A stretch of DNA of 64,000 nt from Escherichia phage myPSH1131. The notes beneath the pieces were generated by a model. That model did no database searches, was not told the DNA's origin, and saw nothing but the letters and a program-made list of their open reading frames with translations. The stretch lies in the sequence record MG983840.1. The stretch is one strand, 5' to 3'. Both the position numbers and the translations under genes were made by a program. Positions 10,601-62,417 of this stretch are shown piece by piece; the stretch's first letter is position 1; the number at the start of each line of letters is the position of its first letter.

Positions 10601-11038
10601 GATGGGTTTATTAACACCTATAACAGAGAAGTGAATGCCTTCAACAAAGCTAACAAGAACTCTCAGTACGAAGCTGCTGCTAAGCATTTACAGGCTCGTG
10701 AAGAACGTCTTGCTACACTCAGGAAAAAGGCTCAGGCTCGTTCGGATGCTAAAGCTGCTGTTGAGAATGAACGTAAAACTCTAGAGGCTATTGCAGCTCA
10801 GAAGAGTGAGATTGAGAAGATGATGGAAGGTTTACCTAAACCTGTTCGTGAGGCTCAGGAATCTCGTACACTGAAACAGTTGGCTGCTCACCACGATAAG
10901 AACTCTCCAGTTCCTCCAGAGAAGTTCCGTAGTTACATTGAACGTATCCATAACGCCGAGTCAGACTACCTTGATCGTCAGCGTCGTTTAACTGATGCAG
11001 AGGAAGATGCTCGTCAGGCTAAGTGGAACAAGATGTAG
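7691..11038 (+). CDS. large A/E/K/R-rich coiled-coil virion protein (about 1115 aa)
   Basis: Start chosen at ATG 7691 preceded by AGGAGA (track ORF begins 7646); long charged, Ala-rich sequence; size and position fit an internal core/ejection protein. Confidence 0.5.
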   Translation: MANIKPWEEASKAPAYLNASPEQQAQMREQYKAAGGSIPEEQPVAQPQQEERGAIGEFAQGVSNALQSGGANIAASAAKGIGGLVEIGENLAGAQTSYGKRIQENSQNLLKERMDKIEDGIGKTVGQYAGVAGDIGLTVANPLAAAAIIAGRETGRAYADQTPEEGEDKSILDAALVGGANYAAQRILPGAVGTAESTLGRIGQNVASNAVAGAKGGALVGAAEAQNKHGDDTTFANVLEGAIEEGAMGAAFGGAVGGVHGLISRPDSAVFKNTPEYAKTDIAADDELIRSAKNIDELKEAYSKAETANAASALNLLDENGFRITDAVAVDSPAAQRILNTDQARAEKAASVQKEHSNIPGLNPLASPAKTRGKAFADNEHNQKQAVAMKDAMADYTKDNTKALTDVLDNLDRELTSLRASGDFTGSPIDIKNRTQADRDFIDAYKTFYNEANRFKAREGEDFNNFVEKATELQKMADNVSPEMKKAIGGLKKLKGMPEGFNPIQDAYTLNNTAKFMSNQDRGWTSLTDDGFREASSPSLVMNTLGAAKYALNRFSSQRARSQRVKQQESNSEAIRSLARGDLEVARAKSTADEARAKMEEEPVVDDIKFKTQNDVETEPVREPSSSTVTEENLPSSTPQETPLTARDLVAQRRAIRQAEQRRAEEEALAAQEAPVEQAPQAEPLPARNPLEERRAMEQQRAQEEAAQAPEPTVEEPTVKAEPLPARAPKAPKEAVQDVKPASGVERLAAMSSAARQATKDRAERFARSLYSKAAKAKATAENFLAYKGDPKELMRRIRQEDNAINTERHEEMARNQLASQQGIATAKNNTVRTNFAEWVKERGLPEDIATKALRAEEKGLGGNVTNLDSLKRRAERLYQKQREDEFDRLYQQALEENKAFDNKNAPKLVDQKKELQSEIDTLIDAEPLRPAQKDAMRKLMNDFVDGKFKSSEKAGREEALEVGQMKDIWDGFINTYNREVNAFNKANKNSQYEAAAKHLQAREERLATLRKKAQARSDAKAAVENERKTLEAIAAQKSEIEKMMEGLPKPVREAQESRTLKQLAAHHDKNSPVPPEKFRSYIERIHNAESDYLDRQRRLTDAEEDARQAKWNKM

Positions 11039-11146
11039 TAGAGAAAGACTAGCTTAAAAGAGGAACCTCATGAGGAATAAGAACGAAGATTGTAAGTATA
11101 GTTCAAACCGAGGTCATAATATAATAGATTTCATAAGTATTAGAAT

Positions 11147-12100
11147 ATGCAGAACAACGATCCGGGATTCATCTCCCAACAGCTGGCTGGGTTTAATGGC
11201 AACCAACAAGGTGCTCTGAACAACTTAGCAGCTTCTACTACTCAGAAGCAATTGGCTGATATGTACACACCTCGTACACAGCAAGGGTTGGACCAATTAA
11301 ATTCTCTTGCACAGCAGTATCAGAATATTGTCAATGGTGGTGGTCTAACTGCTGATGGTGTTAATAACTTTAGTAAAGGATTGAATAACTCAGCTCTTGC
11401 TCAAGCGACTAGTAAGGCAGCTTCCAATGTATCCCTCGGAAATGGTTCTGATTCAGGCTCTCTCCGTAGAGCTGCTGCTCAAGGTGCTGCTCTGAACAGT
11501 GCTAATACAAACTTAGCTCGTACTATCAGTGGCAAGAATATGGGAATCAGTGCTCTTCAACAAGACCAAAACTTCCAGAGGGGCTTACTTGGTGCTCAGT
11601 CAGGATTGGCTGGACAGAATCTCAATCTTGGTGCTCAAGGTGTTCAGGCAACTCAACAAGCTATCCAGAATCAACTCATGGCTGGTAATCTACAACAGCA
11701 ACAAGCCCAAGCTCAAGCTGATATTAATTGGCAGAACGCTATTGGCTCTCAACAGTATGGGTGGAATCAGCTTAACAACCAACTTAATGTATTAAATAGT
11801 GTAAGCCCAATGGCTGGGTACACGATTAAGAATGCTGCTCCGGGGGTTAATACTGGACAACAGCTCCTAGGTGCTGGTATCACTGGATTAGGTATTGCAG
11901 GTCGTATGGGTGCTTTCTCTCCTAATCAACAGACTCAGAATGCTTGGAGTTCCTATAACAACTCAGGTGGGCAATCTGGAATGGCTGGTCCTATGATTGG
12001 TGGTTCTAATCTTTCTCAACAGAAAGGTCAGTCTAACTGGTTATCCACAGCAGGTAGTAATATCTTAGGTGGTGTCTTAGGGGCATTTGGAGCAAACTAA
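11147..12100 (+). CDS. paralog of Q/N/G-rich virion protein, lacking the first ~33 codons
   Basis: Aligns to residues 34-350 of ORF 3927..4979 with scattered substitutions; upstream sequence unrelated. Confidence 0.45.
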   Translation: MQNNDPGFISQQLAGFNGNQQGALNNLAASTTQKQLADMYTPRTQQGLDQLNSLAQQYQNIVNGGGLTADGVNNFSKGLNNSALAQATSKAASNVSLGNGSDSGSLRRAAAQGAALNSANTNLARTISGKNMGISALQQDQNFQRGLLGAQSGLAGQNLNLGAQGVQATQQAIQNQLMAGNLQQQQAQAQADINWQNAIGSQQYGWNQLNNQLNVLNSVSPMAGYTIKNAAPGVNTGQQLLGAGITGLGIAGRMGAFSPNQQTQNAWSSYNNSGGQSGMAGPMIGGSNLSQQKGQSNWLSTAGSNILGGVLGAFGAN

Positions 12101-12112
12101 AGGAGATTTGAT

Positions 12113-12502
12113 ATGAGTATGGAGTCTAAAGGATATAAAGACCCTGCCAAATACGAAGCTTATCTTGAAAGACAGAGAGATTATAAGAGACGTAAAAGGG
12201 TCGAGGGTGACCCTTGGTATGATCCTGAAAAAGTGAGAGCTAAGAATCTCCAAAAGATGTATGGGATATCTCATGAAGAATATGAGAAAATGTGGGAAGA
12301 ACAAGAAGGGCTTTGCAAGATCTGTGGTAATCCAGAGAGTGTTAAACTTAAAGGTGTGGTTAAGCTACTAGCTGTAGATCATTGTCATTTATCTGGCAAG
12401 GTTCGTGGTCTTCTTTGTAATAACTGCAACAGAGCGATAGGTATGCTTAAGGATGACCCTGAGATACTTCGTCGTGCTGCTAGCTATTTAGAGGAGATAT
12501 AA
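12113..12502 (+). CDS. HNH homing endonuclease
   Basis: RBS AAGGAGA; HNH motif LAVDHCHLSGKVRGLLCNNCNRAIG plus CKICG; inserted between the duplicated virion genes. Confidence 0.8.
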   Translation: MSMESKGYKDPAKYEAYLERQRDYKRRKRVEGDPWYDPEKVRAKNLQKMYGISHEEYEKMWEEQEGLCKICGNPESVKLKGVVKLLAVDHCHLSGKVRGLLCNNCNRAIGMLKDDPEILRRAASYLEEI

Positions 12503-12503
12503 T

Positions 12504-13472
12504 ATGTCGCTTTTCGGAGGCGGGGGTAGTAAAACTACTTCCCAAATGATTCGCCCTGAATACATTCAACAGTATATTGACCAGCTTAACCAACAGATTG
12601 GTAATACTAGTTCAGGGGATTATGTTTATCGGGACAACGTAGGATTTAATAATAACCAAACAGAGGCACTTAATAACTTAGCACAATCTGGCGCTTTAGG
12701 CACTCTCTCACAGCAATACATGGATGCAGCAGGTCAAGGGTTAGGTTATCTGGATAATGCCTATAAAGGCTATCAGAGCCTCTCTGGACAAGGTGGGATT
12801 ACTGGAGAACAGATTGGTGCTCTCGCTGGTCAACTGTATGATGATGACGCTGTGCAAGCAGCCATTACAGCTAATAATGAACAGGTTCAACAGAACTTGG
12901 CACGTAATGCTCTTCCTCAGTTGGCTCAACAGTTTGCCGGTCAACAAGGTTCAGGTGCTCGTATGGCTAAGTCTTTTGCCCAAGGTGATGCTCTGAATCA
13001 GATGCAAGGGCAAGCAACAGATATTACCAATAGTGCATATAACTCGGCTATCAGCCAAGCTGAAAGCATCCTCTCTGGTAATAGACAGAATCAGGCAGCT
13101 GCTCTCTCTGGTCTTTCTAATATTGGTTCTAACCTTTCTAACCTAGGTCAGCAGGGTGCTAATTTGTCTCAACAGCAAATAATGAATCAATGGAATGCAG
13201 GGTTGCAGCAACAACAGCAACAACAGAATGAATATGATAATGCCTACCAGAATGCTCAGAACGCAGCTAATTGGGGATGGCAAGATATCAATAACCAACT
13301 CGGTGCAGCAGGTGTACTTAACGGTGCTCTCGGACAAACTACAACTACTAAAACATCTGGTGGCAAAGGTGGTTTCCTTGGTGGAGCTATGAGTGGTGCA
13401 GCAGCTGGCTCTTCCTTTGGACCTTGGGGTGCATTAGCTGGGGGTGTAATCGGTGGGTTGGCTAGTACTTAA
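12504..13472 (+). CDS. paralog of Q/N/G-rich virion protein (full length)
   Basis: Collinear with ORF 4992..5960 over 322 aa with few substitutions. Confidence 0.5.
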   Translation: MSLFGGGGSKTTSQMIRPEYIQQYIDQLNQQIGNTSSGDYVYRDNVGFNNNQTEALNNLAQSGALGTLSQQYMDAAGQGLGYLDNAYKGYQSLSGQGGITGEQIGALAGQLYDDDAVQAAITANNEQVQQNLARNALPQLAQQFAGQQGSGARMAKSFAQGDALNQMQGQATDITNSAYNSAISQAESILSGNRQNQAAALSGLSNIGSNLSNLGQQGANLSQQQIMNQWNAGLQQQQQQQNEYDNAYQNAQNAANWGWQDINNQLGAAGVLNGALGQTTTTKTSGGKGGFLGGAMSGAAAGSSFGPWGALAGGVIGGLAST

Positions 13473-13485
13473 TTAGGAGATAAAT

Positions 13486-14319
13486 ATGCAACAGACAACT
13501 TACGCTCAGGTCAGAAGTCGTGACCCGAGAAATACTTTCTATGGTGTTAATCCGGGAGCGGCTTCGGCCTCTCCTTATATGGCTAGACCAACTCAGACAG
13601 CAGATATTTCTATGTATCAACGTCCTGCTATACCTGCTGGGCTTTCCTCTCTTATAGGTCAAACTTCAGTAGATTATCAGAATATGTTGAATCCTGTTCA
13701 GAGTAATGGTCTTCCTTCTGATATCCCAAATGATGTACAACCTCAAGCACAACAGGCTGTAACTCTTCCTGAGTTTGAGAATCAAGAAACCATGCAAGCT
13801 GCTGGACTTTCCCCTTCTTCTATTCCTCCAGAATCAGAACCTCTTCCGGTAACACCTCCTACTAAACCGTTAGAAGCTGGTCCTATGGAGTTTACTCCTT
13901 CTCAGGTGGAACAGGCACAAGGTGTGATTAATACTCTTGCTCAAGGACAAGATACTGGTGATGGAATGGCTGCTGCCACTCGTGCTAAAGATCAGGAACG
14001 TGTTAACAACGATATATTGCAAGTTGCGAAAGCTAAAGACCCTTCGGAAGCTTGGAACAAACTACAGAAAGAACCATTCTACCAAAACTCCAGTTTCTAC
14101 ACAGGTTTGATGGGTGTAGGTCTTTCCATTATGTCAGGTAAGTCTCCTATTGAAGCTTTCCAGATTGGTCAGGGAATGGCTAATCAAGATGAGACTAAGA
14201 AGCAACTGGAAGCTAACCGTGCGTCATACATCCCAATTCTCTTCAGAAGTCTGGATGTTCATCTTCAAAGCATCCTGAGATGCCTCCATAGAACCAATCC
14301 GATTTACTTCCAAGGATAA
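13486..14319 (+). pseudogene. truncated paralog of internal virion protein
   Basis: Matches first ~245 aa of ORF 5974..7623, then diverges after KKQLEANR into unrelated sequence and stops. Confidence 0.45.
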
Positions 14320-14513
14320 CAACTTCTTCATTCATATACCCTCCTAGATTGTGTTTATAAAATTAGTAAGTTTCTCTTCACTTTCATCAAAAGCTTTTCC
14401 AGCTGCTTCCATCTCCCAAGTATCGGCATTGTCAATAAAGCTCTGAGCTTCTAATAGGTCGTGGATTAAGTCGAAGAGTTTATTTTTATCTGCTTGTGTG
14501 ATCATGTCAGTTC

Positions 14514-14741
14514 CTAGATTAAATCGTAATACTGAATAATGTCAGAGAGTTTGAACTCTCGAATCTCATCTTTCTCTACATCTATCGCTGTCATAATCCA
14601 ACAAGGTTTGCCACCGTTATGAAAACGGGAGCTAGCAACGGAGGTTCGGAGTGGAATAACGGACCGGTCAGCAACCTCGCCTCTCCAATTGCGATAGCGA
14701 AAGCGAAGCACTTGTTGCGTAGATTTTTGATCATCACTCAT
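14514..14741 (-). CDS. hypothetical protein (75 aa)
   Basis: ATG at 14741 overlaps the stop of the upstream HNH gene; the track ORF extends further 5' into the HNH gene. Confidence 0.35.
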   Translation of the reverse strand: MSDDQKSTQQVLRFRYRNWRGEVADRSVIPLRTSVASSRFHNGGKPCWIMTAIDVEKDEIREFKLSDIIQYYDLI

Positions 14742-15135
14742 TTCCTTTTTTGAATTGTTTTCTTGCATCATTCTCTTCTTTTGTTTTAATCTTATGACAA
14801 GGGTCTTTACACAGAACCTGAAAACCTTCTTTCTCACACAGAGCACGAGAGATGATCTCATCCCAAGTGGCTTCATGGTCAAGAGGAACTATAGGCTCTA
14901 TGTGGTCAATAGCCATATCCTTTACAGGGTGGTCAGAACCACACATGGCACACTTAAAGTGCATTGCCAGTCTACCTGTCTTTGGATTAATCTTCTGCTC
15001 TGTCTTGGCGTCTGCTAGTGCATCGAACATGGGCTTCCACTTTCTAGTCAGAGAACGAATCCCTGACTTGATAAAAGAATTGTAACGAGCTTCAGTCCAC
15101 ATTCCAGAGCATCTAGTCTTCTCAGCCTTCGCCAT
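14734..15135 (-). CDS. HNH endonuclease
   Basis: Motif CAMCGSDHPVKDMAIDHIEPIV and a further Cys/His cluster; N-terminal 60 aa shared with ORF 20560..20943. Confidence 0.7.
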   Translation of the reverse strand: MAKAEKTRCSGMWTEARYNSFIKSGIRSLTRKWKPMFDALADAKTEQKINPKTGRLAMHFKCAMCGSDHPVKDMAIDHIEPIVPLDHEATWDEIISRALCEKEGFQVLCKDPCHKIKTKEENDARKQFKKGNE

Positions 15136-15313
15136 AACCTACACTCATATCATCTTCTTCCCATACACGTTTATCTACTCGGTGTGATACTTTTTCACGT
15201 TTTTCTTTAATATAGCGGTTGCCTAATTCGTGGCTATATTTAATACGCTGCTCTTTACGAGATTCACGGTTGGAGGAGTTTTCATCATATGAACGATAAT
15301 CAAATTTACCCAT
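15122..15313 (-). CDS. small basic hypothetical protein
   Basis: 63 aa R/K/E-rich; a 57-aa paralog at about 20925..21108. Confidence 0.3.
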   Translation of the reverse strand: MGKFDYRSYDENSSNRESRKEQRIKYSHELGNRYIKEKREKVSHRVDKRVWEEDDMSVGYGEG

Positions 15314-15326
15314 TATAATATCCTTA

Positions 15327-16169
15327 TTACCAAGATTTATCTAACCATGTCCAGTCGAACAGGTCTTCCGGAGTCTGACCAACAAAGAGCAGCCGAGCAT
15401 TCTCAAGCATCTTCTCTTCATCTTCAGTATCGAACTTCTTATAATATTCCATTCGTACTATATGATACATGGTCCATCTATCTGTAACACCAGCCAACAG
15501 ACTAGCTGCTGCTTTCTTCCCTATTCCTTGACGTCGAAGCTGAAGCTTACCACCCCACATAACCTCTTTACGTTCCCCACATCCGGGGATGTTATCCGTA
15601 CCATCTCCAATCAACATTTGATAGAAGAAGTTTTGCCATGAAACTAAATCAGATACGTAATGAGGAGGGACTTCTTTCTGTCTTTCTCCACAAGCCCAGC
15701 GATAATGCCATCCGGGAGTTATCAACAAATCCTTGTCTCTAGTACAGATGATAGTATTCTTATCCCTACGTTGCCTTTCAGCTAGTGCATCATCAGCCTC
15801 TCTCCCAAAGACCTCAATGTATTCGTACTTGGCTTTAATGTAATCACCAACGTTTTGCCAGTGAAAAGGTCTTTCTCCGGGAGGTCTGTTTGCCTTGTAG
15901 TCTTGTTGCTTAGCAACATCGAAACGGAAGTTACCGCCTTCGCTGAAGTAGAATACAACCTTACTACAACCCGAGCGAGCTATAATTGTATCAATCTTGT
16001 ACTGAAGTCGTTCAATCATGAAATTGTAATCAACTGGAACACGTCCTGTGTCAAGGAAGGGATGCTCCTGAGTAAGAGCACCCACTTCATACCGAAGAAC
16101 GTCAGCGTCCACTATAGCAACTTCAGGGAGCTTAACTTCTTCCATAAATATCATCCTGAGCTTGAGCAA
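15327..16169 (-). CDS. 5'-3' exonuclease / flap endonuclease (FEN family)
   Basis: PIN-like N-terminus (IVDADVL) and H3TH motif LIGDGTDNIPG...GIGKKAAASLL. Confidence 0.75.
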   Translation of the reverse strand: MLKLRMIFMEEVKLPEVAIVDADVLRYEVGALTQEHPFLDTGRVPVDYNFMIERLQYKIDTIIARSGCSKVVFYFSEGGNFRFDVAKQQDYKANRPPGERPFHWQNVGDYIKAKYEYIEVFGREADDALAERQRRDKNTIICTRDKDLLITPGWHYRWACGERQKEVPPHYVSDLVSWQNFFYQMLIGDGTDNIPGCGERKEVMWGGKLQLRRQGIGKKAAASLLAGVTDRWTMYHIVRMEYYKKFDTEDEEKMLENARLLFVGQTPEDLFDWTWLDKSW

Positions 16170-17021
16170 TAATCCAATCTAGGTCTGATACTGCTGATTC
16201 AATAGTTGAGTCATTAAACAGTAGATATGTTTTTCTCTGTTCGCCTTCAATATACGAGCGAGAATCTCTATCAAAAGAACAACCATCTCTAAGAACTTGG
16301 ACAACTTGGACATTGAAATTCTTTTCTAGTTCTCGTACCTCTGCATCAAAGCCTCCGTCAGTGAAAACAATAATGTCGTCCTGACCCAGCCCTTCTTGTT
16401 TGATGCTCTCTACAGCAAGATTCCCCATATGGTTGTTGCCAAACATAGGTTTTAAGAAGTCTTCACTTGTAGAAATCATCAAATCTCTTACAGACTTCCC
16501 TCCCCATTCTGGTCTAGGCTTTTCTTTCCATTCACGATCTTCATAGAGTGCTAGAAAGTTTTCTAGAGGCATACCCAATGCAGCAGCAGCTACATTATAC
16601 ATCGGCTCCTTGAAAGACTTGGTTGAATATCCATGATGGTATGAGTGTGCATTTACCCAAGCACTAGCTATCGTATCTTTACCACAACCCGGAGGCCCAT
16701 TAAGAATTACCACTAAAGGTTTATATTGGGAGCATTCCACCATATTAGTCAGTGCTGGATTGCCTTGAGATTCCATTTCTAATTGCTCCGTGTGGTCATG
16801 TGAGTAGTCTACTGGAGAAGTTTTGTTACCAGTAACTTTAGGTAAAATCGCTCTAGTTGTTTCTACGTATTTACCGCCATCAATATTGATTTGAAACTCT
16901 ACAAGCTCATTCTGTAACTCATATCCTGATAAGTTGGATAGCTCCTCCAACTCATCTCTGACGAAATTTAAATGTTTGATTTTAATTGCAAGAGCTTTCT
17001 TTAAAGCTTTTACCTCTTCAT

Positions 17022-17031
<10 letters not shown>
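16132..17031 (-). CDS. P-loop kinase (nucleotide or polynucleotide kinase-like)
   Basis: Walker A LNGPPGCGKDT; Asp-rich downstream motifs; substrate not assignable from sequence. Confidence 0.55.
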
Positions 17032-20943: not shown

Positions 20944-21122
20944 AATCAGCTTCTTCCCAAACTCGTTTGTTTACACGATGGCTTACTTTGCCCTCACGAG
21001 GAATACGACCAGTTCTCTGATCAAACAGTTGATGTTTAATCTTTTGGTCTTTACGAGATTCACGATTGGAGGAGTTTTCATCATATGAACGATAATCAAA
21101 TTTACCCATTATAATATCCTTA

Positions 21123-21845
21123 TTACCAAGATTTATCTAACCATGTCCAGTCGAACAGGTCTTCCGGAGTCTGACCAACAAAGAGCAGCCGAGCATTCTC
21201 GAGCATCTTCTCTTCATCTTCAGTATCGAACTTCTTATAATATTCCATTCGTACTATATGATACATGGTCCACTTATCTGTAACACCAGCTAGTAATTTA
21301 GCTGCTGCCTTCTTCCCTATTCCTTGGCGTCGAAGCTGAAGCTTACCGCCCCACATAACTTCTTTACGTTCCCCACATCCGAACAGGTCTTCCGGAGTCT
21401 TATGAACGATAATCAAATTTACCCATTATAATCCTTATTACCAAGATTTATCTTCAGCTAGTGCATCATCAGCTTCTCTCCCAAAGACCTCAATGTATTC
21501 GTACTTGGCTTTAATGTAATCACCAACGTTTTGCCAGTGAAAAGGTCTTTCTCCGGGAGGTCTGTTTGCCTTGTAGTCTTGTTGCTTAGCAACATCGAAA
21601 CGGAAGTTACCACCTTCGCTGAAGTAGAATACAACTTTACTACAACCCGATCGAGCTATGATTGTATCAATCTTGTACTGAAGTCGTTCAATCATGAAAT
21701 TGTAATCAACTGGAACACGTCCTGTGTCAAGGAAGGGATGCTCCTGAGTAAGAGCACCAACTTCATACCGAAGAACGTCAGCGTCCACTATAGCAACTTC
21801 AGGGAGCTTAACCTCTTCCATAAATATCATCCTGAGCTTGAGCAA
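21123..21845 (-). pseudogene. disrupted second copy of FEN 5'-3' exonuclease
   Basis: Track ORFs 21438..21845 and 21123..21416 match N- and C-terminal parts of the 15327..16169 protein; middle part missing. Confidence 0.55.
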
Positions 21846-22707
21846 TAATCCAATCTAGATCTGATACTGCTGATTCGATGGTTGAGTCATTAAACAGTAG
21901 ATATGTTTTTCTCTGCTCTCCTTCAATATATGAGCGAGAGTCTCCATCAAAAGAGCAACCGTCTCTAAGAACTTGGACAACTTGGACATGGAAATTCTTT
22001 TCTAGTTCTCGTACCTCTGCATCAAAACCTCCGTCAGTAAACATGACAATATCATCCTGACCTAACCCTTCTTGTTTGATGCTTTTTACAGCAAGATTTC
22101 CCATATGGTTGTTGCCAAACATGGGTTTTAAGAAGTCTTCACTTGTAGAAATCATCAAATCTCTTACAGACTTCCCTCCCCATTCTGGTCTAGGTTTTTC
22201 TTTCCATTCACGGTCTTCATAGCGTGCTAGAAAGTTTTCTAGAGGTATGCCTAGTGCAGCAGCAGCTACCTTGTACATTGGCTCCTTGAAGGATTTGGTT
22301 GAATAATTGTGATGGTATGAATGGGCATTGACCCAAGCATTGGCTATCGTATCTTTACCACAACCCGGAGGCCCATTAAGAATTACTACTAAAGGCTTAT
22401 AATGGGAATCTCCCACCATGTTGGTCAGTGCTGGATTGCCTTGAGATTCCATTTCTAATTGCTCCGTGTGGTCATGTGAGTAGTCTACTGGAGAAGTTTT
22501 GTTACCAGTAACTTTAGGTAAAATCGCTCTAGTTGTTTCTACGTATTTACCGCCATCAATATTGATTTGAAACTCTACAAGCTCATTCTGTAACTCATAT
22601 CCTGATAAGTTGGATAGCTCCTCCAACTCATCTCTGACGAAATTTAAATGTTTGATTTTAATTGCAAGAGCTTTCTTTAAAGCTTTTACCTCTTCATTCA
22701 TTCCCAC
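21808..22707 (-). CDS. P-loop kinase, second copy (full length)
   Basis: 299 aa collinear with 16132..17031 with scattered substitutions; Walker A GPPGCGKDT retained. Confidence 0.55.
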   Translation of the reverse strand: MGMNEEVKALKKALAIKIKHLNFVRDELEELSNLSGYELQNELVEFQINIDGGKYVETTRAILPKVTGNKTSPVDYSHDHTEQLEMESQGNPALTNMVGDSHYKPLVVILNGPPGCGKDTIANAWVNAHSYHHNYSTKSFKEPMYKVAAAALGIPLENFLARYEDREWKEKPRPEWGGKSVRDLMISTSEDFLKPMFGNNHMGNLAVKSIKQEGLGQDDIVMFTDGGFDAEVRELEKNFHVQVVQVLRDGCSFDGDSRSYIEGEQRKTYLLFNDSTIESAVSDLDWIIAQAQDDIYGRG

Positions 22708-22794
22708 TGAAGTCGTTCAATCATGAAATTGTAATCAACTGCCTCCTGTGTCAGGTGAGTAAGAGCACCTACTTCATACCGAAGAACGTCAGCG

Positions 22795-23504
22795 TCAGCG
22801 TCCATAGTCGAACAGGTCTTCCGGAGTCTGACCAACAAAGAGCAGCCGAGCATTCTCAAGCATCTTCTCTTCATCTTCAGTATCGAACTTCTTATAATAT
22901 TCCATTCGTACTATATGATACATGGTCCACTTATCTGTAACATCAGCTAGTAATTTAGCTGCTGCCTTCTTCCCTATACCTTGACGTCGAAGCTGAAGTT
23001 TACCACCCCACATAACCTCTTTACGTTCCCCACATCCGTAAAGTTAGATTGTTCAAGCGAAGATTAGAATCTTTCTTTAACATCTCATTATATTACTACA
23101 GGTTCTTTAAATTCAGCTAGTGCATCATCAGCCTCTCTCCCAAATACATCTATGTATTCATATTTACCTTTAATATAATCACCAACATTTTGCCAGTGAA
23201 AAGGTCTCTCTCCGGGAGGTCTATTTGCTTTATAGTCTTGCTGCTTAGCAACATCAAAACGGAAGTTACCACCTTCGCTGAAGTAGAACACAACCTTGCT
23301 GCAACCTGAGCGAGCAATGATTGTATCTATCTTGTACTGAAGTCGTTCAATCATGAAATTGTAATCAACTGGAACACGTCCTGTGTCAAGAAAGGGATGC
23401 TCCTGAGTAAGAGCACCCACTTCATATCGAAGAACGTCAGCATCCACTATAGCAACTTCAGGGAGCTTAACTTCTTCCATAAATATCATCCTGAGCTTGT
23501 GCAA
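22795..23504 (-). pseudogene. fragments of third FEN exonuclease copy
   Basis: ORFs 23088..23504 (N-terminal part) and 22795..23013 (C-terminal part) match the FEN protein; catalytic middle absent. Confidence 0.5.
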
Positions 23505-24111
23505 TAATCCAATCTAGATCTGATACTGCTGATTCAATAGTTGAGTCATTAAACAGTAGATATGTTTTTCTCTGTTCGCCTTCAATATATGAGCGAGAGT
23601 CTCCATCAAAAGAGCAACCATCTCTAAGAACTTGGACAACTTGGACATGGAAATTCTTTTCTAGTTCTCGTACCTCTGCATCAAAACCTCCGTCAGTAAA
23701 CACGACAATATCATCCTGACCTAGCCCTTCTTGTTTGATGCTTTTTACAGCAAGATCCCCCATATGATTGTTGCCAAATATAGGTTTTAAGAAGTCTTCA
23801 CTTGTAGAAATCATCAAATCTCTTACAGACTTCCCTCCCCATTCTGGTCTAGGTTTTTCTTTCCATTCACGGTCTTCATAGCGTGCTAGAAAGTTTTCTA
23901 GAGGTATGCCTAGTGCAGCAGCAGCTACCTTGTACATTGGCTCCTTGAAGGATTTGGTTGAATAATTGTGATGGTATGAATGGGCATTAACCCAAGCATT
24001 GGCTATCGTATCTTTACCACAACCCGGAGGCCCATTAAGAATTACTACTAAAGGCTTATAGTGGGAATCTCCCACCATATTGGTCAGTGCTGGATTGCCT
24101 TGAGATTCCAT
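23467..24111 (-). pseudogene. N-terminally truncated third copy of P-loop kinase
   Basis: ORF starts at internal MESQGNPALT; upstream homology continues to about 24280 out of frame. Confidence 0.5.
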
Positions 24112-44472: not shown

Positions 44473-44658
44473 TTACTCTGTAATAAAGATTTTGATTACA
44501 CCGCAGATTGCTGCACTTTCAAACACTGCAACAGCTTCACTTCCTTGAAAGAAGGCCACTTTGCCATCAGAGAAGTTAAACATGTCAGCATCGAGGTCCA
44601 TTGCTCGCATCTCACCAGCTGCATTGGTATCTTTAAACAGAACTTTATACTTATTCAC
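44473..44658 (-). CDS. small protein (61 aa), copy 3
   Basis: Two substitutions relative to copy 1. Confidence 0.4.
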   Translation of the reverse strand: MNKYKVLFKDTNAAGEMRAMDLDADMFNFSDGKVAFFQGSEAVAVFESAAICGVIKIFITE

Positions 44659-48956: not shown

Positions 48957-49742
48957 TCAACAAGAACCTCTCCGTTGGACTTCTGAATGCAAATCAGATT
49001 CATCCAGATTGTAATCCAGAGGAAGGTAAGGAAGCATTGGGGCAAATCGTACAGTATTTAAGTGCTCAATAAACTGATCATTGCTCATATCTGCGTTATC
49101 TAAAGCCAGCTTCTTCAACATCAAGAAGCGGTTAACCAGATTGAGAAGTTGACCACGTTTCCACTTAGGCTCACTGATACGGAACTCAATTGAACCGTAT
49201 TGGGCAAGTGGCAGAAGGTTCAGAGATGTATATTTATCCCATGAACGAACCAGACGGTTGAAGAATTCTTCACCATCGTAGTTAAATGCGTCAGAGGCAT
49301 TCATTACCTGTGCTTGTACCACTGCAAACGCAGGGCAGAAATTGCTACGGTAACGATGGTAGCCTGAACACTTGAACAACATCTTTTCATAGAAGGTCCA
49401 AGCAAGGATGGTCTTCTTGAGGATATTACTATCAGCATCCCTCATATCCATATGAACGTGAGTAGAGCAACGCCAAGTCCCCTCGGCGTGCGATTCAGCT
49501 ACTGCTTCACTCAGGTTGTTGATAGCGTCTAACAACTCCTGTCCGTTGTAAGGTCGTGAACATACCATTTCACAACCGTTACGCAGGGAACCATCCTCTG
49601 TGCAATCCCACATATCTGCTTCGATATGTTCAGAACCTTCGAGTTCAAGTTCAATACCGACACCGCACTGAAGTGCAATTGAACTATGCGCCTCAGTTAA
49701 ACGACCTTCTCGATATCCAAAAGTTTGCGCTACAGTTGTCAT
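48957..49742 (-). CDS. amidoligase-like (carboxylate-amine ligase-like) protein
   Basis: GVGIELELEG...EDGSLRNGCEMV...CSTHVHMDM pattern resembles putative amidoligase enzymes; assignment by motif memory only. Confidence 0.45.
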   Translation of the reverse strand: MTTVAQTFGYREGRLTEAHSSIALQCGVGIELELEGSEHIEADMWDCTEDGSLRNGCEMVCSRPYNGQELLDAINNLSEAVAESHAEGTWRCSTHVHMDMRDADSNILKKTILAWTFYEKMLFKCSGYHRYRSNFCPAFAVVQAQVMNASDAFNYDGEEFFNRLVRSWDKYTSLNLLPLAQYGSIEFRISEPKWKRGQLLNLVNRFLMLKKLALDNADMSNDQFIEHLNTVRFAPMLPYLPLDYNLDESDLHSEVQRRGSC

Positions 49743-54282: not shown

Positions 54283-54512
54283 TCGCCTTTCTTAGCACGA
54301 TCTTTGGCAGTTTTGCCAGTGCGGATGCGATGAGAAACGTTAACCAGAGTGCCACCATCAACTACGGTAACGCTCTTGTTTTTAGCCAGATCAAATACAG
54401 TCTTCTCTGTGCCACCCAAGCGAATTTGCTTAGGCTCACTGAAGGTTTGGGTTGATTTGGATTGGAACTGGAACGGTTGACGGATTGCATCGATTGCGCT
54501 TACTTTAGACAT
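54279..54512 (-). CDS. hypothetical protein (77 aa)
   Basis: ORF with 4-nt overlap to downstream gene. Confidence 0.35.
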   Translation of the reverse strand: MSKVSAIDAIRQPFQFQSKSTQTFSEPKQIRLGGTEKTVFDLAKNKSVTVVDGGTLVNVSHRIRTGKTAKDRAKKGE

Positions 54513-54945
54513 AGTGGAAATTCCTTAAAAAGTTATGGCTGCGTAGAGGGAATTCTCTACGCAAATTGGACCGCCTAAAAAGAGGCGTCATAGTACTAAA
54601 AGGAGGAGAGAAGAGGGCTTATTTAGCTACCTTTTTCTGTCCGTTTACAAACCAGATAATTGAACCGTCAGGCTGGCGTTGACCGAAGCCTTTCTGGTTG
54701 ATCATATCATCATAAGAATATGCTTTTGTTTTCACTTACTTACCCTTACATCGGAGTTAAGATGATCTCTGCTTTGGCAAACTTCTCGCCAACTTCAAGA
54801 GTGTCAGAAACAGGACGAGGTTCGCCAGTAATTCAACATCTCCAGTTGCAAGTTGCAAGTTGATATCGGTTATAACTTCACCATTAATCCCCATTTTCAC
54901 TGGCTGGCCTAAGAACTTCTTCTTGTTCCCCTTTCCTGTTGAAGA

Positions 54946-55173
54946 TTAAGAGGTACGTTGATTGACATCATCAAGACCTTTAACAGATAGTACACCTGTG
55001 GATAGATTCACTACAGGAACCCAGCCACTGGCTATACGGATGTTACCAGAAGCATTTTCAACCCTCATATAATACTGAGGAGAGGCACTTCCGTGCTGAA
55101 CCATGAAGGGGTTTCCGGGAATGATTGTTTCCAATCGAACCGTATTATCCTTTTTCTTTGGGATGATTTTCAT
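54946..55173 (-). CDS. small protein, GDVF-motif paralog family member
   Basis: About 75 aa, MKI start, TIIPGNPF segment; weakest family member. Confidence 0.35.
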   Translation of the reverse strand: MKIIPKKKDNTVRLETIIPGNPFMVQHGSASPQYYMRVENASGNIRIASGWVPVVNLSTGVLSVKGLDDVNQRTS

Positions 55174-55421
55174 TATGTATTATCCACCAAAAGTTCTGCC
55201 GACACAGGAATAACTCGACAATAAATAGAAGGTGCTGTTACATTGCCATCAGACAGACGAAGAGTGATTGATCTGTCAGAGTTGATAGTAACGTTTGGAC
55301 TTGCAGACACAGACCCTTTGACATACAGGGTTGCATTGTCAGGAAACTTAAACACAGCTCCGCTGGGAAGTGAGTTGAGGTCAACTGTAGTCACTTCTTC
55401 TTTCTTGTGAGTAATCTTCAT
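55173..55421 (-). CDS. small protein, GDVF-motif paralog family member
   Basis: Start at internal MKITHKK (55421); NSLPSGAVFKF motif. Confidence 0.4.
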   Translation of the reverse strand: MKITHKKEEVTTVDLNSLPSGAVFKFPDNATLYVKGSVSASPNVTINSDRSITLRLSDGNVTAPSIYCRVIPVSAELLVDNT

Positions 55422-55422
55422 A

Positions 55423-55653
55423 TTATTTACCCTGAATAATAAGTTTAGATTCGAACAGATCAACAGTATTGGACAAAGGGACAGGAAAGAAAATATCTTT
55501 AGGGTTCCGAACACACATTGCAGAATGCTCCCCTGTTTTTATCCAGAATTTAGGGACTACATCGTCACCAGTAAAACGAAAAACATCTCCATTCTCCAAG
55601 TCAGAGAAAGTCTTGGAGGGTGTTTTGCTTTTTGGTACTAGCTCAAAATTCAT
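55423..55653 (-). CDS. small protein, GDVF-motif paralog family member
   Basis: SDLENGDVFRF motif. Confidence 0.4.
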   Translation of the reverse strand: MNFELVPKSKTPSKTFSDLENGDVFRFTGDDVVPKFWIKTGEHSAMCVRNPKDIFFPVPLSNTVDLFESKLIIQGK

Positions 55654-55661
55654 CTTGATTC

Positions 55662-55973
55662 CTATTTAAGTTTGAGGCTAATGTTAAGGTGCATACATGC
55701 TCTGTTCTGTACAGCAGCATAACTTCTACCGAGCATGTCAGCCATTCTCTGAATAGACATGAACCCAGCATTACGGATAAGGAACTGGTCCTCTTCTTCA
55801 GACCATTTAACTCGGATTGAAGCTCTTGATATGCCGAATTTAGTGCAAGCTGTGTTAACAGCATTCTCCGTTACATTCATAATCTGAGCTACTTCTTGAA
55901 CCGAGTACTCTTTGATTAGTCTCCGAAGATTTTCAATCTGCATCGGAGTCCATATAGTTCTTCGTGCTTTCAT
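55662..55973 (-). CDS. DNA-binding protein with two helix-turn-helix-like repeats
   Basis: Repeats W..MQIENL...SVQEVAQIMNVTENAV and WSEEEDQFL...SIQRMADMLGRSYAAV. Confidence 0.45.
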   Translation of the reverse strand: MKARRTIWTPMQIENLRRLIKEYSVQEVAQIMNVTENAVNTACTKFGISRASIRVKWSEEEDQFLIRNAGFMSIQRMADMLGRSYAAVQNRACMHLNISLKLK

Positions 55974-56423
55974 ACATCCTCCAATTAATTGTTAAAACTA
56001 TCAGGGGAGAACACTAGCTCTGGGCCACGCTGTAGATATCGGCCTACCTTCCACAGCTAATCAGCTAATATACTCCCCTAATAGTTTATGAATAGGGGGA
56101 GGGGACGAATCCTCCCTTATCCTATTAGTTAATATTGCATGTAAGATCTAACAATCGGTTGCCTTTGTAGGAATAAGCGTAAAGCCAATCCAGCACTAAA
56201 CTCCCGCCCCCTTAGTGGGCTGGGTTATTAAAGGGTAACGCCCTTATGGGCTAGTTACATGAATGTTAGTTTGATAGGAGATCTGAAGTCCTATCTCAAA
56301 GGACTCTCGTAAGAATCCTTCACGATAAGCTCTTAACAAGATTGGTCACACGGCTGATCACCACATGTTTTACAAATCACTGGTGAGTAACTACAGGCCT
56401 AAGAACTTCTTCCTTTTATTTTC

Positions 56424-56642
56424 CTAAAACCGCTCTATTATCCCACTCAGGGATGCGTTGCGTATGTTTGTCGTGGCGTTTGGGCCGTAAGTACGTATAC
56501 AGACACAGCATGAACGAACAACAGTAGCGCCACGCTGAACGATACGGACCTCTTCCTTAACCAGATTAACACGAGCACCACAGCAAGGAGAGTTGACATA
56601 AGAGTAACCAGCTTGTGTATTCTTGATTGTTTGCTTAGACAT
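56424..56642 (-). CDS. Cys-rich small protein (72 aa)
   Basis: CC pairs (SPCCGARV, SCCVCI). Confidence 0.3.
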   Translation of the reverse strand: MSKQTIKNTQAGYSYVNSPCCGARVNLVKEEVRIVQRGATVVRSCCVCIRTYGPNATTNIRNASLSGIIERF

Positions 56643-57239
56643 TTGAGCTTCCTCTTGTTAGTTTAGGTAAACCACCCCAATCACTGCTGCACTCATTCAT
56701 GTGGAATGCAGATGGGAAAAGTAATTAAAGGTGATTTACCTAAAACAACAAAGGCCACCCGAAATGCGTTTCCCATAGTCGCTGACATTGCATGAATCCA
56801 AAAGCCTTCCAGTTTCAGAGCACCATTAGCTACTGCATCCATACGTTCAGGGCGGTTCATACGTTTGGTTGATACTTTCATACCTATCTCTCTTTGTTAG
56901 TGGAGGCATTATTGCCAGTTGATATAAGGGATAGCCCTAGTCAGTAGACTAATCCTGACCGCGTACTCATTGCCGACCTTCTCTGCCTAAGAGTTCAGGT
57001 TCTAGAGCTATCTCTTATTCCAACTGGTGAAGACTCCCTACCCCTAGGAAGTCTCCTGAATCCCAAACTAATACGTACCCCTACATATCAGAAAGTCTTT
57101 CGAAAATTAACAGGTTTTAGTCTAGCACCGGATGTTCGAGCAAGCTCTCCCTAGCGGTGTGGCATATGCCTGAATTAATAAGTTAATGAGGAACACCCTC
57201 ACATAGCCCTCTGATAAACACAAGGGCTATAAGTCGATG

Positions 57240-57458
57240 TTACTTTTGAGTCAAACACAGATCGGGACGTGGCATAACAGTGGTTGATAGACCGAAGACT
57301 TCAACATAACCGCTGCTCAAGTTAGCAGCCTTACGCAAACCGTCAGAGGTCTTATCTTCTAGCATCAGCCAGAAACGTTTATCGTAAGAGAAAACATCAC
57401 CGCCCTTAACATCTTCTGCATTTGCATATTTAGGATAATCAACTACTTTAATTTCCAT
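57240..57458 (-). CDS. small protein, GDVF-motif paralog family member
   Basis: EDVKGGDVFSY motif. Confidence 0.4.
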   Translation of the reverse strand: MEIKVVDYPKYANAEDVKGGDVFSYDKRFWLMLEDKTSDGLRKAANLSSGYVEVFGLSTTVMPRPDLCLTQK

Positions 57459-57716
57459 TCACTTACCTTTATTAGTAATTACTGCATCTGGGATAAGGAT
57501 TACAGGAAGATTTGAATTAAGCTTCATAACCTGATTAGTTCTTAAACCAAGCACAACTGTTCCAGAATCTTTCCTGTTCGACTCGGTTACGTGTGGAGTG
57601 AATAAACTAACAACCAAATAGTGATCGACGCATGTAGATTTAACTTGGAATACATCTCCAAGCTTTAAATCACCCACTGTAAGATCTGGGTCTTTCATCT
57701 CAAGATCAATCTTCAT
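57459..57716 (-). CDS. small protein, GDVF-motif paralog family member
   Basis: GDLKLGDVFQV motif. Confidence 0.4.
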   Translation of the reverse strand: MKIDLEMKDPDLTVGDLKLGDVFQVKSTCVDHYLVVSLFTPHVTESNRKDSGTVVLGLRTNQVMKLNSNLPVILIPDAVITNKGK

Positions 57717-57942
57717 CTTTAGCCTCTATGTTGGTTATGTGAAGATCACTACGTACTTGGCAGACTTCATCCCGTTTAAAAGGCATGAGCTTTCCAGTTA
57801 CCACATCAACACAGTTGACATAATTGTCTGCGTACAATGTGTCGGTTCTGATGTAAAGGGATTCTTTACGCTCAAACAGAACCCCCGGCTTCATGTTATT
57901 TAAGCGAAGCATTGTACGATCGGATTTAATATTAACTTTCAT
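57706..57942 (-). CDS. small protein, GDVF-motif paralog family member
   Basis: NNMKPGVLFER motif. Confidence 0.4.
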   Translation of the reverse strand: MKVNIKSDRTMLRLNNMKPGVLFERKESLYIRTDTLYADNYVNCVDVVTGKLMPFKRDEVCQVRSDLHITNIEAKDED

Positions 57943-57944
57943 CT

Positions 57945-58202
57945 TTAATCCACCTTATTGGTAAGTCGAGCATTATCAACTACCTGAACAACAGTATCTT
58001 TTCTCAACATTGTTATTCTATCCGAAGTGAGATCTACTACTACTCTTTCGTCAGGCTTCCAACTAGCTGAATAAACGGTTGAGGAATCTAGCTTTACTGT
58101 AAGATATATTTTATTTTTAGGTGGAACAGTTTCAAAAACACTCCCCACCTTCAGGTCTTTCAGTTGCTTGACTACAGGGGCTGTATTAATATCATGCTTC
58201 AT
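57945..58202 (-). CDS. small protein, GDVF-motif paralog family member
   Basis: Start at internal MKHDINT (58202); KDLKVGSVFET motif. Confidence 0.4.
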   Translation of the reverse strand: MKHDINTAPVVKQLKDLKVGSVFETVPPKNKIYLTVKLDSSTVYSASWKPDERVVVDLTSDRITMLRKDTVVQVVDNARLTNKVD

Positions 58203-58488
58203 TGTTAATCTCCTGCTGTTTAGCAATAGCCACTCGCAAGTCTTCATTAGCACGAGCAAGGCGTAACACTTCGTGGTTGAGGTTCTGAAGACGCTTGTTT
58301 CTGTCCTCTACTTGCATAATAAGATCGTTAAGTGTTACTTTAACTTTCTCATTATACATCTCATCCACTCGAACTAGGGATTTATACATTCTTTCCCAGC
58401 TTGCTGCTTTGTTTCTGAGAACAATAAATCCTAGAACACTGATAGTTAAACAGCTTACAAAAAGGAATTTATATACTTCTAAAGTCAT
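58192..58488 (-). CDS. membrane-anchored coiled-coil protein (98 aa)
   Basis: N-terminal TM segment FLFVSCLTISVLGFIVL then charged coiled-coil-like region. Confidence 0.4.
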   Translation of the reverse strand: MTLEVYKFLFVSCLTISVLGFIVLRNKAASWERMYKSLVRVDEMYNEKVKVTLNDLIMQVEDRNKRLQNLNHEVLRLARANEDLRVAIAKQQEINNEA

Positions 58489-58687
58489 ATTATTTACCCT
58501 TTATCAGAGATTAAAAGTAATATTATTTAAGTAAGTTATATTTAGTAAACTTATTTTCTAAGAAATTTTCAAAGGGTCTATATACAGAGCATTACCCATA
58601 GTCCCAGAATACTACCATCTTTTTCAATAAATTTACTAAGTGGTTGGTTTATAAAGGAATTTAGTTTGTCAAATCTGGCACTAGTGA

Positions 58688-59457: not shown

Positions 59458-59896
59458 TTACCCTCGCCTCTTTGATGGGGTCGATGTATTTCTCAACGCC
59501 CCACTTGTGTTTACTATCTGCGTAGAAAACATCAGGTGCACATTGGCTTGTTTTAGGGAAGGCTTGCGGGTCTTTCGTGCTCCCCTTAAACTTCTGTTTA
59601 CCTCGAGTGCGACCATTACAGAAGATTTCTAACTTCTTCTCTTCTTCTGTTTTAGCTCCCCCGCTCTGTAACAAAGAACGTTTATGATCAGCCAACAACA
59701 ACGCATCAGCCCGATGGACACGATGGCCTACACGCTTTGCCACACTGGAAGGAACATGGGATTCAGCCTCAGCCTTTGCAGCACGACGTTTTAAACTACG
59801 CTTACTAACGTGATTAGTTGCCTTCGGTTTCTCTTTCTCTAGTTCAGAGATAGCAAAACAACGACCGCCCTTCATGCTGATTTTAGATTTAGCCAC
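59453..59896 (-). CDS. basic hypothetical protein (147 aa)
   Basis: K/R-rich ORF. Confidence 0.4.
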   Translation of the reverse strand: MAKSKISMKGGRCFAISELEKEKPKATNHVSKRSLKRRAAKAEAESHVPSSVAKRVGHRVHRADALLLADHKRSLLQSGGAKTEEEKKLEIFCNGRTRGKQKFKGSTKDPQAFPKTSQCAPDVFYADSKHKWGVEKYIDPIKEARVK

Positions 59897-60487
59897 AATC
59901 TTATTCCTTTCAGTGATAAGTTATATCGGGCAAGCCCATCAAGGCGATAGGCTTGAACAAATAACTTAATCAAGTAAACTAAACGATTTCCAACTGTTTC
60001 TTATTGGCACTACTCACCGTTGTAATTCGTCCGGTTGTACATTGATACACTACACGACGACCAAACGAGTTTTCTTAAACTGAAATATTAGTGATATTGC
60101 TATAAAGATACCTTTGAAATATAAATACCGTAGTTCCCGTAGTCGTAAACTCTGATTGAGCAAATGACGCTTTAACAGCCATTTTCCTAACTTCTTCTTT
60201 ACGCTGGTTAGTGTGTACAGTATCCCAATGATTGTTATCACGTTGGCGCTGTAATATCTTACTACATTTGCGATGGTTTCCCGTGCTGCGATGTTTCTCG
60301 CAAATAGGACACTTGCCAAAATTATTACTGAATATCATTTTCTCAATCCCAACTTTCTTAAGATACGGCCTAACGTTGTTTCTTGCGTGATAATATAGCT
60401 GATCGCTTCACGTTCCAACGTTTCAATAAGGCGCTAGGATTAAGATAGCGCCTTATGCCTTATTCTTGCTGCCTGACGGCCATAATC

Positions 60488-61787: not shown

Positions 61788-62417
61788 TTAAAGAGCGGTA
61801 AATCTATCAGTGTGCTTTCTCACACTATGCAACTGTTAGCCGTTGTTACGCTTTTCACTGAAGCGATGATTTGCTTAGTGAGTGCTCATTATGAATCATG
61901 TTGTTTTCGCTGTCAACCGCTTTTTAATCTTTTTTCGTCGTTCCCGCTATTGGGAGGATATATCAATCAGCTTTGTTTGATTGAAGATTAAGCGGTGAGG
62001 CTTAACTTATGATTCATATTGTTAAAGAGCGTTTTTAGCCTTTTATAGTGTCTGCTAATCACTGCATCATTGAAGGCTTACTGATTCATTAACAGGACGC
62101 CTAACCCTGAACTACTCGCTGCACTATGTGCCACCTTTCCCGCGATACGTTGATTTGGGAACTTGTTAGCGGTGTATCTGCTAACTTGTGGTTAGTATGG
62201 ACTACTTTAACCACGTTTGCAACTCTTTTTATCATCTTCTTTTAATTCCTTTCCCTTATCTCGCGTGAATCTATGCGAAAGGGCAAGATGATAAGTTTTT
62301 AAAGAGCGGGATTTTTTAAGTCATCGCTGACTATGCTCACTATATGTCAGGCTGTTTTCGGTGTCAATACTCTTTTTGAGAATATTTTCACTTTCTAGCC
62401 TGATTTTTAAAGAGCGG
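61788..62417. promoter_or_regulatory. four copies of TTAAAGAGCG(G) motif in low-coding region
   Basis: Motif at 61788, 62012, 62299, 62407 (plus strand); region 60974..62750 has almost no long ORFs. Confidence 0.35.

Follow-up and report, generated by a model that had tools for sequence, protein, structure and literature searches.

Two tandem groups of very small genes lie between positions 54,946 and 58,202 of a 64,000-nucleotide stretch of Escherichia phage myPSH1131 (sequence record MG983840.1; this whole stretch is called the window below), and they raise a double question: are their products related to one another, and what might such a set of proteins do for the phage? A first-pass annotation of this DNA had proposed that the seven encoded proteins form a diverged paralogous family, which it did not recognize, and that they may serve host takeover or anti-defense. 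The window belongs to a phiEco32-like Kuravirus (Gordonclarkvirinae). By megablast, its positions 54500-58600 are 99.8% identical to Escherichia phage ES17, with 100% identity when the stretch is compared block by block, and about 100 other phiEco32-like phages match the same positions at 80-99%. All seven open reading frames (ORFs) were found in the two groups described, on the minus strand and with lengths of 72-85 amino acids (aa). They are listed here as m1 to m7, each with its E-value against a hidden Markov model (HMM) of distant relatives that is explained below.

54946-55173, minus strand: m1, 75 aa; ortholog of ES17_95 and phi32_96; PHROG 7431; HMM E 2.4e-11
55173-55421, minus strand: m2, 82 aa; ortholog of ES17_96 and phi32_97; PHROG 7832; HMM E 9.3e-12; overlaps the start of m1 by 1 nucleotide
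55423-55653, minus strand: m3, 76 aa; ortholog of ES17_97 and phi32_98; PHROG 10911; HMM E 8.3e-5; the most divergent of the seven
57240-57458, minus strand: m4, 72 aa; ortholog of ES17_109 and phi32_113; PHROG 6570; HMM E 2.7e-8; ratio of nonsynonymous to synonymous substitution rates (dN/dS) 0.09
57459-57716, minus strand: m5, 85 aa; ortholog of ES17_110 and phi32_114; PHROG 9955; HMM E 6.8e-10
57706-57942, minus strand: m6, 78 aa; ortholog of ES17_111 and phi32_115; PHROG 16423; HMM E 9.6e-14
57945-58202, minus strand: m7, 85 aa; ortholog of ES17_112, not in phiEco32; nearest paralog m5; HMM E 3.7e-11

The ATG starts of m2 and m7 agree with those of ES17_96 and ES17_112, although longer GTG or TTG versions appear in the ORF list. 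A Shine-Dalgarno-like element precedes each of the seven genes, and the spacing between neighbors ranges from -11 to +2 nucleotides. Because neighboring genes thus overlap or abut, their translation is probably coupled. The orthologs are labeled "hypothetical protein" in both ES17 and phiEco32.

In a MAFFT alignment of m1-m7 only M1, G20 and F23 are invariant. Four of the seven begin with MK(I/V), the start that had been ascribed to the whole group, and the others begin with MEI, MKH and MNF. The G and the F of the proposed GDVF-type segment are indeed shared by all, but a motif this short is not significant by itself, as [LIVMF]xxGxxF, which is positioned at residues 17-19 in all seven m proteins, is also present in 31 of 400 other ORFs of the window. 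Pairwise BLASTP is significant for m5-m7 (2.5e-6) and m6-m7 (1.2e-4) only, and narrow profile-profile comparison (hhalign) is convincing for m5-m7 only (97.5%). Among the weak hits of the subfamily HMM and hhalign searches, the top rank usually went to another family member.

Relatedness was settled by profiles that reach beyond the motif. Each m protein is a full-length member of its PHROG (E 1.6e-24 to 3.7e-49, the exception being m7 against PHROG 9955 at 6.3e-13), and the proteins cross-match the PHROGs of one another; m6, which matches PHROGs 6570, 7832 and 7431, ties most of the kuravirus PHROGs together. An independent HMM was built from 20 distant relatives, none of which has a BLAST hit to any of m1-m7. 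It detected seven of the seven proteins with E-values from 9.6e-14 to 8.3e-5, while the best other ORF of the window scored 0.45. Furthermore, single distant relatives each match from three to seven kuravirus PHROGs at once. From the cross-PHROG matches, the distant-relative HMM and these simultaneous matches, m1-m7 are homologous and form one paralogous family, as had been claimed.

The opposite reading, that the seven ORFs are not real genes or that their likeness is due to chance or composition, draws on the failure of most pairwise BLAST and narrow-profile comparisons to reach significance and on the commonness of the short motif. It is refuted by the distant-relative HMM, in which four orders of magnitude separate the seven from the remaining ORFs (about 400), and by the purifying selection that acts on the orthologs (median dN/dS of 0.04-0.19 per subfamily among seven kuraviruses, the set also used for the copy counts given below). 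The confident AlphaFold2 models, the ribosome-binding site of each gene, the tight coupling and the presence of orthologs in about 100 phage records argue in the same direction, and we consider the probability of this reading to be negligible.

The family extends far beyond the group that the first-pass annotation had in view. In an exhaustive HMMER search with the family profile (E up to 0.001), at least 580 cluster representatives at 50% identity were recovered, most of them stand-alone proteins of 67-90 aa, and several proteins in the databases are two-domain fusions. Multi-stretch hits of this search (1475-2710 aa) were rejected as low-scoring repetitive noise, and a second, word-indexed search with a broad alignment added only unnamed metagenomic proteins. 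Coliphage N4 gp21 is a member by sequence (E 1.6e-17 with the broad family HMM, over its full length), and other kuraviruses carry two to four more copies than the window. No function has been assigned to the family in any curated library or paper that we found. Comparison with Pfam, NCBIfam, PADLOC and the sequences of the Protein Data Bank (PDB) gave no match, the defense-system models of PADLOC included; the best result of the PDB sequence-profile search was a spurious one, an antibody heavy chain at E 0.15, and the KOW, EF-P and Tudor models of Pfam gave no hit at E up to 1. Two members carry specific labels, "DNA helicase" (P0045, phage EcoN5) and "Endolysin" (A0A7L4XW47), neither of which is credible for proteins of such size and fold. 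A cellular protein was also found, P0129 (MFV0249145.1) from a Tenacibaculum sp. metagenome-assembled genome (MAG), in which an SprT-like metalloprotease domain is followed by five tandem, very basic repeats that are related to the family. With E-values of 5.5e-9 to 1.1e-6 per repeat the match is real, although it concerns a single protein; this is the only cellular multi-domain context that was found, and the repeat has no Pfam model.

The family consensus reads MKI, about 10 residues, L.DLKPGDVF, 3-8 residues, YYMKT, a variable loop, AVNL.TG.L, about 8 residues, and V.PV.AELVI. Its informative positions are M1, K2, I3, L14, L17, G20, V22, F23, Y29, Y30, M31, A46, V47, L49, G52 and V63, which apart from K2 are all hydrophobic or glycine, and two loops are prone to insertion. 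Across the family alignment there are no conserved polar, catalytic or ligand-type residues. Conservation is thus limited, family-wide, to a hydrophobic core and two glycine turns, while the exposed surface and the two loops are wholly different between paralogs. The isoelectric points (pI) of the window proteins range from 5.2 to 9.9; the distant relatives are mostly acidic, with a median pI of 5.3 and 11% above pI 8.

Structure prediction, which the annotation had suggested as a check, was carried out with AlphaFold2 on m6 and m3 using the family alignments. The model of m6 has six strands, with a predicted local distance difference test score (pLDDT) of 84.3 and a predicted template modeling score (pTM) of 0.71. 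That of m3 (pLDDT 79.8) shows the same strand order, to which it adds one strand at the N terminus (residues 2-7) and a long one at the C terminus (63-72). The predicted fold is an SH3-like small beta-barrel of five or six antiparallel strands, and its structural neighbors are SH3-like. In our reading of the m3 model, the N-terminal strand (MKI...) would pair with the C-terminal one (...AELVI) and so close the barrel, which would account for the conservation of both the C terminus and the extreme N terminus.

Among cultured phages, tblastn with the family consensus matched mainly kuraviruses and two Vibrio phages, and one distant member, used as a tblastn query, matched no phage record. Most relatives sit on metagenomic phage-like contigs of 15-147 kb, in blocks of small unannotated genes. 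The largest expansion that we have seen is on a 61-kb metagenomic phage-like scaffold (L004, ENA ERZ16268292 scaffold_2832, positions 8838-14819), where 16 members, including a two-domain fusion, follow one another over 6 kb; another metagenomic contig has seven tandem members. Amplification in tandem is typical of the family. The seven copies of the window compare with 9 in ES17, phiEco32 and ShigP1, 10 in Ptacy1532 and FS2B, and 11 in MN03, and these seven kuraviruses contain at least 13 subfamilies. In some kuraviruses the position of m3 is held by a different 84-aa paralog, so cassettes are replaced between phages. Because copy number varies and the m3 position is swapped, individual copies are dispensable and exchangeable, and because the orthologs are under purifying selection, each copy is maintained for a function.

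Distant members are also found where small accessory genes form blocks, beside genes of the conflict type: NAMPT/PRPP synthetase, NADAR, reverse transcriptase, cREC_REC and nSTAND. On one 96-kb phage-like contig (L011, 6703-9706), a PRPP-synthetase-like gene and a NAMPT/NAPRTase-like gene, an NAD-salvage pair, are interleaved with seven members. A separate observation concerns the phage-like 141-kb metagenomic contig that carries the member P0159, where an adenylosuccinate-synthetase-like gene is present (L003, 10307-11479); its product could be an enzyme of the PurZ type, from a phage whose DNA contains 2-aminoadenine.

When in infection might the genes be expressed? GC skew shows a leftward gene orientation that begins at about 14 kb and continues up to the window's end. 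In phiEco32-like phages the right-hand leftward block constitutes the early class; the promoters lie at its head and are used by the sigma70 RNA polymerase of the host (PMC8948821, PMC4281155, PMC9965538). Two promoter-like sites head the leftward block that holds both gene groups, and the groups themselves are separated by a regulator gene and about 1.3 kb of other small genes.

62367-62339, minus strand: near-consensus sigma70 promoter-like site, TTGACA-17-TATAGT
61916-61888, minus strand: near-consensus sigma70 promoter-like site, TTGACA-17-CATAAT
55662-55973: D5-like regulator gene, between the two gene groups

The positions of the two sites (61888..62367) match those of the early promoters described for phiEco32 and SU10 (PMC8948821, PMC4281155). 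By their position, m1-m7 belong to the sigma70-driven early block, which agrees with the early-region location given in the annotation (PMC9965538, PMC4281155).

In our best explanation the seven ORFs are real early genes with coupled translation. Their paralogous products of 72-85 aa are soluble and consist of one domain, a predicted SH3-like beta-barrel, and they belong to a large family of proteins from virulent phages in which coliphage N4 gp21 is included. The fold would be a constant scaffold, on which every paralog would stoichiometrically bind its own protein target, in the first minutes of infection. The targets would most likely be host proteins, either housekeeping or defense proteins, and the phage would carry a changeable set of binders, with copies gained, lost and swapped according to the hosts met. 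Six features speak against enzymes, sponges for small molecules and general binders of nucleic acid: a rigid small barrel conserved in its core only, hypervariable loops and surfaces, mostly acidic proteins, numerous divergent copies in each genome, purifying selection on every copy, and an early or accessory location. Jointly they favor stoichiometric binders of proteins, with different targets. Indirect support comes from the conflict-type neighbors of distant members and from the striking resistance of kuraviruses to restriction, for which no inhibitor is known (PMC11990801). We infer protein binding, host targets and a role in takeover or counter-defense; such a role is the most plausible reading of the fold, the conserved core with variable surfaces, the turnover in copy number and the neighborhoods. 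That the m proteins are stoichiometric binders of different targets on an SH3-like scaffold, acting in host takeover or counter-defense, is in our estimate about evenly balanced between true and false.

Several considerations weigh against this proposal. The structures are predicted, and m3 and m6 were likened by their strand order; among the top structural matches there is no solved anti-defense or host-takeover protein. The evidence from neighborhoods is anecdotal, coming from five contigs. Proteins engaged in an arms race often have a raised dN/dS, whereas here the orthologs are conserved and the variation lies in the presence or absence of copies and not in their sequence. N4 has a single copy, which is located among genes of the replication region and not at the very start of the genome. 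Functional work on the family was not found in the literature on phiEco32 early genes, Kuravirus anti-defense, N4 gp21 or SH3-like phage paralogs. Finally, another explanation, DNA modification, has been proposed for the resistance of kuraviruses to restriction-modification systems (PMC11990801); among the systems tested in the BASEL study, Fun/Z is the only one that acts on Kuravirus.

The main rival to the binder model holds that, like KOW, Tudor, Sm or L2-SH3 domains, the proteins attach to nucleic acid, to the ribosome or to RNA polymerase, and thereby modulate host or phage transcription or translation early in infection. It is raised by the structural neighbors and by the Tenacibaculum MAG protein with its SprT-like protease and five very basic repeats of the domain, and it would fit the extensive rewiring of host RNA polymerase by kuraviruses (PMC12276001). 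However, the majority of the members have an acidic or neutral character, conservation extends to no basic or aromatic residue of the surface, and the KOW, EF-P and Tudor models are unmatched, as described above. As regards RNA polymerase in particular, mass spectrometry of the enzyme from phiEco32-infected cells found gp36 and gp79 only (PMC12276001). On balance we regard this rival as unlikely. A role directed at the phage itself, as accessory factors in assembly or replication or as components of the virion, would accord with the place of N4 gp21 among middle genes near replication genes and with the purifying selection on orthologs, but copies are individually dispensable, since the window lacks two or three of the ES17 members and phiEco32 has no m7, and the genes are located in the early block. 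If there were one conserved phage partner, so many divergent surfaces would not be needed. A virion or structural role finds no support, given the early block and the SU10 proteome table, in which no product of the family is listed; the 34 proteins that SU10 preparations yielded include no early product of about 8-10 kDa (PMC4281155). We therefore hold a phage-directed role to be improbable, somewhat more so than binding to nucleic acid or the transcription and translation machinery.

One could also imagine oligomeric sponges for small-molecule immune signals, comparable to Tad1, Tad2 and Acb2. These would be small, abundant early proteins, the two-domain fusions hint at an oligomeric function, and some relatives adjoin NAD-salvage genes. 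A shared ligand, however, needs conserved pocket residues, and none are conserved. Moreover, the presence of 7-16 very different copies per genome is at odds with one or a few ligands, and the solved sponge proteins give no structural match. This explanation seems to us very improbable.

Comparison with known systems places the family more precisely. N4 gp21, an uncharacterized protein of 74 aa, shares with the m proteins both sequence and predicted fold (template modeling scores of 0.77/0.81 in BFVD); it differs in being a single copy in N4's first 16 kb, and we found no functional data on it in the literature. The m proteins are full-length members of PHROGs 7431, 7832, 10911, 6570, 9955 and 16423 (also 8365 and 12612), all of "unknown function"; PHROGs keeps these families separate, and here they become one superfamily. 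To the L2 C-terminal domain, EF-P/eIF5A domain I, KOW, Tudor, CarD-RID and UvrD-CTD there is a resemblance in fold only, with no sequence relationship, and the KOW glycine pattern, the modified-lysine loop of EF-P and the aromatic cage of Tudor domains are not conserved in the m family. The VapX antitoxin of Haemophilus VapXD is a functional analogy only, without sequence similarity and without a VapD-like partner gene near the m genes. The nearest precedent for the proposed activity is phiEco32 gp79, a small early kuravirus protein that binds host RNA polymerase stoichiometrically and is the only characterized host-protein binder of this kind in kuraviruses. Its described parts are helical (an N-terminal alpha-1 helix), and it is a single-copy core gene; it was rejected as a relative, being missed by the family HMM and having no described beta structure. 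In their tandem small early genes, in presence/absence variation between close relatives and in cassette replacement, the m arrays resemble the anti-defense or accessory islands of virulent phages and their lineage-expanded families of small proteins. Such islands usually mix unrelated folds, whereas the m family amplifies one fold 7-16 times.

Not all of the copies in the window need be intact. The m1 gene is a chimeric allele whose full-size counterpart elsewhere encodes 81 aa; it is truncated at the C terminus, where the last 12 residues, which form the C-terminal strand, have been replaced by VNQRTS. Because this strand is lost, m1 of the window may be non-functional; the annotation had taken it as an ordinary member. 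Near it lie the remains of an eighth member.

54746..54830, minus strand: eighth-member remnant, the last 27 codons and stop of the ES17_94 and phi32_95 ortholog (...GEPRPVSDTLEVGEKFAKAEIILTPM*); its 5' part is gone
54831..54966, strand not assigned: ectopic segment of 136 bp that replaces the 5' part of the ES17_94 ortholog and the last 12 codons of the ES17_95 ortholog (m1)

About half of the ectopic segment resembles another phiEco32 early gene (record 59894-60080) at 92%, and no phage record matches the segment across either junction. At the array's opposite end, a 98-aa minus-strand protein (58192-58488), hydrophobic at its N terminus and coiled-coil-like in the rest, overlaps the start of m7 by 11 nucleotides; both ES17 and phiEco32 label it "DNA helicase", almost certainly in error.

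The sequence of the window has further peculiarities. Relative to ES17 it lacks, at window positions 56327-56499, about 1.9 kb that carries ES17_99-106, including the family member ES17_102. A tRNA-Arg that most kuraviruses carry in this stretch is likewise absent, and ARAGORN found no tRNA anywhere in the window. A unit consisting of a deoxynucleoside monophosphate (dNMP) kinase and a 5'-3' exonuclease occurs in three copies (15236-17031, 21032-22707 and 22689-24111) with 91-100% nucleotide identity over most of the unit and proteins that are 93-100% identical; it is single-copy in 72 of the 72 matching phage records. Between 41689 and 45552, in the region from primase/helicase to DNA polymerase, there are three copies of a repeat with a period of about 1.3-1.4 kb and 90-98% identity, each containing a 61-aa minus-strand ORF (41735-41920, 43161-43346 and 44473-44658). 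The closest match of this region is SU10 (94%) and not ES17, which makes the window a mosaic. Further direct repeats, dispersed, 300 nucleotides or longer and 88-98% identical, are located at 49317/50697, 25726/31416, 24815/30140, 35759/40109, 4021/11142 and 4970/12482. Together these repeats are unusual for a podophage genome of about 75 kb, and the reference genomes lack repeats that the window has. The threefold kinase-exonuclease unit suggests that the window is a composite or mis-assembly of several co-occurring kuravirus strains, or else that it contains real recent duplications; to us the window has the appearance of a composite.

That small early proteins without an assigned function form expanded families in phages is familiar. 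The unification, the predicted fold and the behavior of the arrays, on the other hand, appear to be unreported: one family, with a predicted fold and with arrays of up to 16 copies, now takes in N4 gp21 and eight or more PHROGs that had stood apart as "unknown". No part of phage genomes that is still unexplored is larger than the early-region ORFs without an assigned function, and most host-takeover and anti-defense proteins have been found among them. The family offers a defined and tractable set of candidates, as ES17, the BASEL phages Bas86-93 and N4 all grow on laboratory strains of E. coli, and kuraviruses are in therapeutic use. If the idea of a binder scaffold is false, the family is one more conserved ORFan group; if it is true, every paralog points to a host target. 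A bolder version, which we put forward tentatively and think rather doubtful, is that the family is a phage-encoded mini-binder library, in which one SH3-like scaffold of about 75 residues has been diversified to dozens of specificities, each copy neutralizing a different host protein, defense effectors and toxins included, with cassettes exchanged between unrelated virulent phages (Kuravirus, N4-like, and large marine and gut phages). If that were so, the library would be nature's equivalent of engineered scaffolds of the monobody or affibody type, and new inhibitors of bacterial proteins could be drawn from it in large number.

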